Assembly (NCBI GenBank): GCA_965287045.1
Contig: OZ336884.1
Coordinates: forward strand, 52,204,001 to 52,268,000
DNA length: 64,000 nt
From: Carcharhinus amblyrhynchos
Taxonomy: Eukaryota
Direction: 5' to 3'
The notes below the pieces were generated by a model. It saw only the letters and a list, made by a program, of their open reading frames with translations, was not told the DNA's origin and did no database searches. The position numbers and the translations under genes were made by a program. Positions 49,401-58,284 of the stretch are shown here, in pieces (within the stretch, counting starts at the first letter, position 1; each line of letters starts with the position of its first letter).

Positions 49401-49610
49401 AATGGGTATGTTCTGTTTACCCTTGACTCTGTTGTGACCATGCTCTCTGAGGGATGCTATGCTTTGTATTTCTGGGAAAACCAGGCTCTAATAGTCCCAG
49501 AAGAAAGATGGAGCAATGATGATTTGGGGCTTGTTAGAGCAGAGTAACAATCTATTGCTCTTCCGGCAGAGATCTAGGCCAGAGTATTTATTCCTCAAAT
49601 AATACTGAGC

Positions 49611-49846
49611 CTTTTGACTAAGATCAAGTATTGTATTGACATGCTGCACTTAGCTGAAGTCATTAGGTTACATTTTAGCTTCATTTGAAGCAATTTTTAA
49701 AAGCTGCATCTCGGCCTTTTGGAATGATGCAAATGAGATCAAGCTTTGGAAGAGGTGCAATGCCTACTCCAATCAGCTTCGAGTGGGAATGTCTCAGCTT
49801 GTTGAGACAATGAATTGGCCTCAATTTGATTGAATTGGATTAAAAA
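49611..49846 (+). mobile_element. Retroposed short element with a U2 snRNA-derived 5' head (candidate SINEU-like SINE or U2 chimeric retrocopy)
   Basis: 49609-49636 matches U2 nt 12-39 at 25/28. A second U2 piece tctcggccttttgg (U2 7-20) lies at 49709-49722 and agatcaag (U2 24-31) at 49736-49743. A-rich tail; TSD aatactgagc at 49601-49610 and 49847-49856. Confidence 0.85.
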
Positions 49847-50669
49847 AATACTGAGCTCATCAGTTGTAGATCTGCTTTTTCAATTCAGAAGAAAACAGTT
49901 CCGAATTAGATCTTCGTATTCTATAACTATTAGTAAGTCACACGGCCAGACTCTTGACTAATTTGTATTTTTATTCCCAGGTCTGTTTTTACAGATGGTC
50001 ATTTACGTAACTTAATTTTCCAAACTCGGATGTTTTGATTCTGTTAAAATCTTGAGTGAAAAAGTAACTTGCAGTCTTGCATTTAAAGAAGTAATGCTGC
50101 AATAAAGATTCTTGCTGGCTTGCAAATGCTTTATAGGTTTCTGCAAATTGAAGAAGATTGCTGCTTCTGATCATGAAACCATCCTTGGAGTTTATTTTCC
50201 CAGCACTGACCTTTCGCATAACATCTCACACCTTCATTCTCTACATAACAAATTAGTCCTTGGCAGATTTACTCAGGCCTCCAAATGTGCAGCTTACCTA
50301 TCTGTCAAATGTCAATAGACTTGGGATCCAGTGTTCTTTCCTTATTTGCTCTCCAGTAAAGAAAGGTAAGGGAATGGTATTTAGTGGCAACGTTATCCTA
50401 GTTTGCTGGGCTTCCATGGCCTAATTTTATCTTTGCAGTGAGCTTCCACAGATCATAAGATGAAAGAGCCCTAGTAAAATATAACTGTTAGATAGAATTT
50501 TTATTGATCCTGGATTTTCTTTTCTAATAGAAACTGCCTGACTTCTACTCGTCTCTGAGTGATGTAACTTGAAACGAAGCAGCCAATGTAAGCAAAGGAC
50601 ATAACTGCATTGAAAGGCATCTATTGCATTAAAAGTAATAAAAAAACTTTCAATTATCTTACTCATTCC

Positions 50670-57767: not shown

Positions 57768-57940
57768 ATTTGTCGATCAGTGCACATCTTGTTCACATTT
57801 TCCCATTCAGCATCAAGCTGAGCCACTGCATCCTGTATTTGCTCTCCGTCTGTATATGAGACACTCCGCAGAACACTGGGTTTCTTGCTGTGAACTGCTT
57901 CTACTCGGCCCGAGAGCGTCTCCAAGTTCCTTTTTATTTT
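57768..57940 (-). CDS. DMD: Dystrophin coding exon, ortholog of human DMD exon 43 (spectrin-repeat rod domain)
   Basis: Translates KIKRNLETLSGRVEAVHSKKPSVLRSVSYTDGEQIQDAVAQLDAEWENVNKMCTDRQ, matching human exon 43 (NIKDSLQQSSGRIDIIHSKK...QLDFQWEKVNKMYKDRQG). Acceptor ttttctgaactccag|AAA, donor CAAAT|gtaagt. Length 173 nt, phases 0/2, as in human. Confidence 0.93.
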
Positions 57941-58284
57941 CTGGAGTTCAGAAAAGATATAAAATAGGATTGACTGTTTTAGCTGTGCAAGGTAAACAAA
58001 TATCAACAAAAATGTATCTGCTGATTGATGGGGTTTACAAATATTAGGGGGATTCAAATCTTGATTTACAAAAGATATGAAAAACATCCGCAGAATGATT
58101 TTTACTTAAGTGAGTTCAGTCCATCAGCAACTCTTTGTAAAGTAGAACCATTCCCATGTTATGAATAAAACAAGATTATCTTTTGAGAATGCAGTACTAG
58201 TTCTTTATCACTATCAGAAACTGACCTTTACCCATCCAGAAAAGGGCAGCAGTCCTACACAGACTAAAAGTTCAGAATCTAGGA

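Follow-up and report, generated by a model that had tools for sequence, protein, structure and literature searches.

A recently active U2 snRNA-headed SINE family in the shark Carcharhinus amblyrhynchos, very probably mobilized by the U2-targeting LINE Keno

The R2 retrotransposon has short, internally deleted non-autonomous elements in rDNA. These elements are promoterless and rely on co-transcription from their multicopy target gene, as we propose for the SINE family described here; they stay in rDNA and keep the ends of R2, whereas the shark SINE lies at thousands of sites, lacks the ends of its partner LINE and is tied to an snRNA gene. Co-transcription of R2 with its target gene is mentioned in the text of Kojima (2015; PMC4494074) on which we draw, in which the snRNA-headed SINEU elements were found only in crocodilians. 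The transcription of snRNA-headed SINEs was left open there, snRNA promoters being outside the gene, and transcription from a flanking promoter was proposed for SINEU-2 (PMC4494074). Among LINEs, Keno is defined in the consulted sections of PMC4640811 and PMC6136364 by insertion at U2 nt 38/39 and by an APE endonuclease type. Utopia has the same 3' U2 flank as the shark SINE but encodes a restriction-like endonuclease (PMC4640811, as far as consulted), whereas every array insertion seen in this study has an APE-type Keno tail.

The window analysed here is the whole 64,000 nt stretch of C. amblyrhynchos DNA from contig OZ336884.1 (positions 52,204,001 to 52,268,000, forward strand). It contains a forward-strand retroposon insert bounded by an exact 10-bp TSD (49601–49610 and 49847–49856), a 10-mer that occurs only twice in the window and matches at 13 of 14 positions when extended. 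The insert opens with U2 nt 12–40 (49609–49637; the family head is nt 1–40), and of the 28 positions covering nt 12–39 (49609–49636), 25 agree with the U2 gene of this genome. The final 2 nt of the left TSD overlap the head, forming the GC microhomology described in the initial annotation, which had also placed the TSD, the head and the 3' features correctly. It had regarded the body as non-U2 sequence, but the body opens with a complement of U2 nt 11–39 (49641–49669), identified by ungapped comparison of 115 copies and predicted to fold back onto the head. A small hairpin and a T5 run follow (49678–49698; T5–6 in the family, recognized from sequence, fold and T runs), the latter a Pol III stop signal. 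Next comes a second sense mimic of the U2 5' end (49706–49743), supported by its hairpin fold, decayed in this copy and starting at about 49706 rather than at 49709 as first annotated. The mimic consists of stem-loop I with an extended stem, a short insert and then U2 nt 25–31, and in intact copies it is identical to U2 nt 4–27 at 23 of 24 positions.

Further downstream, gapped columns against the family alignment place an internal deletion of about 50 bp at 49774–49789, flanked by two short direct repeats and removing one family hairpin. It should be noted that our 88-copy set is unusable for counting this deletion, because its copy filter excludes deleted copies. The 3' hairpin (49790–49809), one pair of which differs by subfamily (T-A versus C-G), is followed by the polyadenylation-signal variant ATTAAA and an A run (49839–49848, the A run itself being 49842–49848). 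The window insert is thus an old copy, 5'-clipped, short of about 50 bp of the family middle and 89.7 % identical to the family column majority. On its own it has an Rfam score of 16 bits (E 4.5), so the case rests on the family evidence.

Elsewhere in the window, an exon-like frame was observed on the reverse strand at 57770–57949, which we take to resemble a dystrophin/utrophin spectrin repeat. A homolog search with this frame returned no match; the frame would place the SINE antisense within an intron.

The window insert belongs to a real, recently active family of U2-headed retroposons. A DNA search returned 2,639 first-look candidates, 40 of which were scored and gave 62 matches. Genome-wide, a 19-mer spanning the head–body junction is found 1,267 times without mismatch and another close to the 3' end 2,394 times, with no match for either reversed control; cross-detection of the two ends (42/70 and 8/26) puts the copy number at about 4,000, probably an underestimate. 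The initial annotation had suggested a dispersed family rather than a one-off chimera, for which the body would be single-copy. The body is multi-copy with a common head–body junction, so the chimera reading fails, and the exact junction matches, subfamilies and individual TSDs all speak for a family.

A full-length copy is about 300 bp long and comprises U2 nt 1–40, a body rich in hairpins, the signal AATAAA (present in 76 of the 88 copies sampled) and an A run. The head of one copy, L009, matches the genome's own U2 nt 1–40 at 39 of 40 positions. When 30 loci were anchored on the tail, 26 extended to the U2 head and 4 were 5'-truncated. TSD matches of 8–24 bp were found in 17 of 60 copies with intact tails, against 0–3 in five shuffled pairings. 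Near-full copies, of which 115 were compared after being picked either by similarity or by position, form three tail-defined groups of 73, 10 and 32 copies with mean identities of 94.5, 97.0 and 96.1 %, respectively. The youngest copies are 99–100 % alike, and two are identical over the aligned columns. Double U2 heads are present in 3 of 70 junction-anchored copies and also at L121 and L318; the latter (G000:C15:52139233, about 65 kb before the window) is a young copy with two heads, behind which lies a second copy. At L155 (G000:C1:137047622-137047684), two copies lie head to head in inverted orientation, as expected from twin priming.

Words of a young copy were also matched in 20 sequencing runs from 11 studies, none of them listed as an RNA run. 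By word match only, 39–73 % of the words were found in runs under 9 organism labels. A metagenome scan gave a single chance 19-mer match, in unrelated DNA.

The U2 genes of this genome lie in a 10.5-kb array on C45 and in 407-bp arrays on C98, C334 and C734, the 407-bp type having hundreds of copies. The two gene types are about 87 % identical, have unrelated upstream flanks and are possibly tissue-specific. In 495 kb of arrays, with coverage of 235 of the 745 kb of C98, we found 465 intact U2 genes and 50 disrupted-U2 3' junctions. In all 50, U2 resumes at nt 38/39, preceded by the tail of a single LINE family, and the 5' junctions of its array insertions fall at U2 nt 34–58. The ORF1 and ORF2 frames are both open in a full-length element at G000:C98:57783-63177 (L065-L066), and ORF2 has APE (PF03372), RT (PF00078) and zinc-finger domains. 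Since its site and endonuclease type match the definition of Keno, we assign the LINE to Keno; the 3' flank of its insertions agrees with the flank quoted in the part of PMC6136364 consulted. Such array elements are intact and apparently active.

Keno is also dispersed. A 20-mer from its tail occurs 1,051 times genome-wide, and of nine dispersed copies whose 5' end is intact, eight begin with a U2 head that extends to about nt 56 and lacks promoter flank. Double heads were seen on dispersed copies and once inside an array. ORF1 has three named relatives, all from sharks, in indirect agreement with the host: Heterodontus and Chiloscyllium (41 %) and, as the best match, Mustelus (80 % over 32 % of the query). 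One protein record (P0003), a shark PRDM7-like entry, contains a stretch 80 % identical to Keno ORF1, and represents either a fusion or an annotation artefact. Separately, six positions on C98 (G000:C98:25222, 32134, 37825, 44737, 49598 and 71893) show a recurrent junction in which A-run-ended sequence and a short spacer lead into U2 at about nt 118; these junctions are distinct from the Keno site.

The SINE head ends at U2 nt 40, adjoining the Keno site. Birth of the family at this site had been suggested initially, and the link holds, intact Keno being present in the U2 arrays. Like the SINE, Keno is associated with U2 nt 38/39, has a U2 head on dispersed full-length copies, ends in AATAAA and an A tail, shows double heads and contains an antisense-U2 stretch, a weaker one, in its 5' UTR; unlike Keno, the SINE has no ORF, and its body and tail have no alignable homology to the genome's Keno. 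A search with the SINE tail joined to U2 nt 40–47 gave 12 matches, against 1 for the control; 2 are unrelated, and the other 10 are family copies that run on into U2 from nt 39. At L117, SINE and Keno pieces are nested in U2 heads, with a 5'-truncated SINE between U2 nt 37 and nt 39. We consider it very probable that the SINE family is mobilized by Keno.

We lean towards a model in which this ~300-bp non-coding family, headed by U2 nt 1–40, is mobilized in trans by Keno and transcribed from U2 genes that hold master copies at the Keno site. By inserting a SINE copy into a U2 gene, Keno proteins would bring it downstream of the external snRNA promoter, with U2 sequence from nt 39 following it. 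Pol II would then start at U2 +1, and the AATAAA of the SINE together with U-rich downstream U2 sequence would direct cleavage, mostly within the A run but now and then at U2 nt 47/48. Keno would reverse-transcribe the polyadenylated SINE RNA at relaxed sites, and the dispersed copies would be promoterless dead ends. In the RNA, the antisense arm is predicted to fold onto the head and to mask the region which, from U2 anatomy, we take to be that of the branch-point and U6 pairing.

Transcription from U2 genes, considered by itself, is probable. The SINE 5' ends stop at U2 +1: in 51 copies reaching U2 nt ≤5, none matched the unique 5' flank of another or an 80-nt U2 upstream flank, and the only flanks in common were neighbouring SINE tails, Keno tails and extra U2 heads. 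Five of the ten copies with a U2 3' flank end in the tail, U2 nt 39–47 and a second A run, with a TSD clear by eye in three, and three copies continue to U2 nt 112–149 of the C45 type. The five re-polyadenylated copies would reflect read-through from a U2-embedded master, with cleavage about 20–25 nt after AATAAA; a search for uninserted U2 copies ending at nt 47 plus A5 found no exact match. L121 has both an extra head to nt 50 and a 3' U2 piece, as would be expected if its parent copy had inserted into a U2 gene anew. In L318, a young copy, the two heads are separated by 8 nt identical to the upstream flank of a C334 U2 gene, for which a rough estimate of the chance probability is ~0.01. At L122, a 12-nt match to the U2 upstream flank was not counted, as it could be a mutated body start.

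The search for a master copy was negative. Among the 465 intact U2 genes of the 495 kb sampled, none of the 50 junctions held a SINE master, nor did any of 12 C45-type promoters have one downstream. A search for a long, young SINE tail in U2 yielded no master, its only match being L117; of two pattern searches for a promoter-bearing master, one gave no match and the single match of the other had no promoter. The two master pattern searches allow one head and up to about 25 extra bases, so full double-headed masters would escape them. The U2-promoter transcription advanced in the initial annotation therefore has indirect support from the U2 3' flanks, the parallels with Keno and L318, whereas the master behind an intact promoter that it predicted was not found in the sampled arrays and pattern searches. 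This absence is awkward because the youngest copies are 99–100 % alike; the master could be unassembled, polymorphic or double-headed in the other 510 kb of C98, or it could be absent and the model wrong. One candidate was rejected: at L209/L210 (C45), a decayed U2 promoter is separated by another insert from a partial copy some 450 bp downstream. This duplicated relic consists of the decayed promoter, U2 nt 1–13, an inverted coding-like insert, presumably ribosomal protein S18-like, and the partial SINE.

In an alternative, which we consider unlikely though the best of the rivals to our model, Keno moves the family from masters outside U2 genes. The head would have been gained once by template switching to U2 RNA, flanking promoters would drive transcription, and the U2 3' flanks would stem from insertion into dispersed heads or retrocopies. 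The absence of any copy in the sampled U2 arrays or behind intact promoters agrees with this, nested insertion into dispersed heads is seen at L117, and template switching can add extra heads (PMC4494074, sections consulted). The U2 3' flanks could indeed come from dispersed U2 heads or retrocopies, and the L118 copy shows greater divergence in its U2 part (90 %) than in its SINE part (95 %). Masters outside U2 fit poorly, however, with 5' ends that stop at U2 +1 without any common 5' extension in 51 copies, with five copies re-polyadenylated after U2 nt 47, with the 8 nt of U2 upstream flank at L318, and with the fact that Keno itself disperses headed and promoterless.

The closest described counterparts of the shark family are SINEU-1/2/3, as presented in the consulted text of PMC4494074. 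Like it, they are short, non-coding elements that start with a U2 5' head and end in a poly(A) tail; they contain internal oligo-T, have gained heads repeatedly, occur as tandem copies on either side of a TSD, share their tail with no LINE and have a Tx1-clade partner. In the shark SINE we find the structural features of that design: an snRNA head, a length below 500 bp with poly(A), spread from masters, no LINE sharing the tail, repeated head addition, an oligo-T that excludes Pol III, and a target shared with a Tx1 LINE (U2 nt 38/39). The host, in contrast, is a shark rather than a crocodilian, and its partner, Keno itself, sits in U2 arrays, whereas that of the crocodilian elements is Tx1-Mar in a Mariner (PMC4494074, same sections). 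The shark copies further differ in their U2 3' flanks and in the antisense-U2 arm, which goes unmentioned in the text of PMC4494074 consulted. Because the likeness is one of described features only, we class the shark SINE as working like SINEU and not as a member of SINEU-1/2/3.

It probably arose independently of the crocodilian elements, a judgement made by comparing descriptions and not sequences. That the family is instead related by descent or transfer to SINEU-1, or is already named in Repbase, and so is no new independent origin, seems rather improbable. The same architecture (a short U2 head, repeated head additions, a tail without LINE match and a Tx1 partner close to Keno) would favour kinship, whereas PMC4494074, in the text consulted, did not find SINEU outside crocodilians, the subfamilies here are young, and we found no report from sharks. 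Our literature search returned no description of a U2-headed SINE in sharks, its coverage leaving out most subscription journals and Repbase Reports, and the consulted parts of PMC5381603, PMC7245038 and PMC5499810 contain nothing on sharks. In an annotation table for an octopus (PMC13282606, part consulted), 'U' and 'U-L1' are given as SINE classes with no further description. A repeat of 4,000 copies is probably present, unnamed, in automatic repeat libraries, and the family may be in Repbase.

We also considered whether another LINE, either L1 or a non-Keno Tx1 element, does most of the dispersal by recognizing poly(A), with Keno responsible for the founding insertion only; this is decidedly unlikely. 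It would account for the 3' ends of the two elements, which have nothing in common beyond AATAAA and an A run, so that the 3'-end comparison recommended in the initial annotation did not link the SINE to Keno. The SINE as a deletion derivative of Keno was likewise rejected, as only the U2-derived parts align. A U2-like target preference, suggested by eye, was not borne out at dispersed SINE sites (17 of 84 have TC/CT behind the tail, against a 20 % background), and TSD lengths of 8–24 bp fit L1-like enzymes generally. However, dispersed Keno tails are equally without U2-like preference (2 of 30), and no LINE carrying the SINE tail was found, all 30 tail-anchored loci being SINE copies, a sample that a rare LINE could escape.

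Adjacency further points to Keno. Of 30 Keno tails, 5 are followed on the same strand by a SINE no more than 35 bp away; conversely, a Keno tail immediately precedes 5 of 70 SINEs, and the two sets have three loci in common. A mere liking for A runs predicts less than 0.5 % adjacency to Keno tails, because runs of A≥8 number an estimated 1.1 million genome-wide. Additionally, at L167 the Keno 3' UTR is fused directly to the 3' half of a SINE. A comparison of secondary targets gave 12 in-register SINE–Keno pairs against 5–10 in the control, which is not clearly above it. The proposed dispersal by L1/Tx1 machinery can be narrowed from the generic class to Keno. In a non-U2 repeat (L212, L217, L220, L153 and L159), the same base has been hit by three Keno tails and one SINE; this repeat contains short U2-like words.

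A conventional Pol III SINE, driven by the A-box-like motif near nt 124 and the B-box-like motifs at nt 142 and 195 associated with the second U2 mimic, is most improbable, because T4 at nt 15 and T5–6 at nt 97 (two copies scanned) would terminate upstream of the boxes in a motif-level test, and because 26 of 30 tail-anchored copies reach the U2 head, about 100 nt upstream of the box-predicted start, while none of the 30 starts near nt 107.

In a comparison over 115 copies, the antisense arm (body nt 44–72) can be matched gap-free with U2 nt 11–39 in reverse complement. Its fixed transitions are three A>G and four C>T, with no G>A or T>C, so that seven of seven keep G·U pairing. The probability that all seven fall on A or C by chance is p ~0.02, with the caveat that folding, by which the hairpin was detected, is biased towards wobble pairs. 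The arm has also acquired four transversions, in two symmetric 2×2 loops, and two polymorphic sites that are likewise wobble-neutral and may represent CpG decay. The head–body duplex has a z-score of −4.0 (1 of 300 shuffles as stable) and the whole element −6.0. In the 3' hairpin, the variable pair is T-A in 61, C-G in 41, T-G in 8 and C-A in 5 of the 115 copies, a covariation between subfamilies that is probably one event.

The Keno 5' UTR carries a weaker antisense stretch to U2 nt 19–36, with a z-score of −2.8 (5 of 300 shuffles) that is the best of 15 windows along Keno. In a second 5' form of Keno (L264-L269, L271, L276, L265), the U2 head abuts the antisense-U2 stretch, some 160 nt of 5' UTR having been deleted.

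Sense-strand A>G hyper-mutation is seen in two SINE copies, one at L015 (upstream of the main copy there) and one at G000:C334:349-885, with 32 A>G versus 2 T>C changes in one and 35 versus 6 in the other. This pattern fits a folded transcript, because editing of double-stranded RNA is expected to give A>G, and the two copies are likely retrotransposed edited RNA. Such hyper-mutation is absent from all 115 aligned copies, both cases lying outside that set.

The most complete version of our model is an independently evolved, still-active, promoterless snRNA-headed SINE that cycles through U2 genes, has its poly(A) signal completed by U2 and bears a selected antisense arm paralleled in the Keno 5' UTR. 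As a whole we put this forward tentatively, as somewhat short of an even chance.

A borrowed U2 promoter, if true, would explain how promoterless SINEU-type elements are transcribed. The idea is directly testable in this shark, since the genome offers intact Keno, assembled U2 arrays and very young copies. The family would extend the SINEU design from crocodilians to sharks, with a probable second origin. The antisense mask over the U2 head is a structural prediction that can be checked in Keno, Utopia and SINEU, and, if true, it would be an undescribed RNA feature of U2-targeting retroelements. Finally, the ~4,000 dispersed copies, together with near-identical sequence under 9 organism labels (by word match), may supply presence/absence markers for shark phylogeny.
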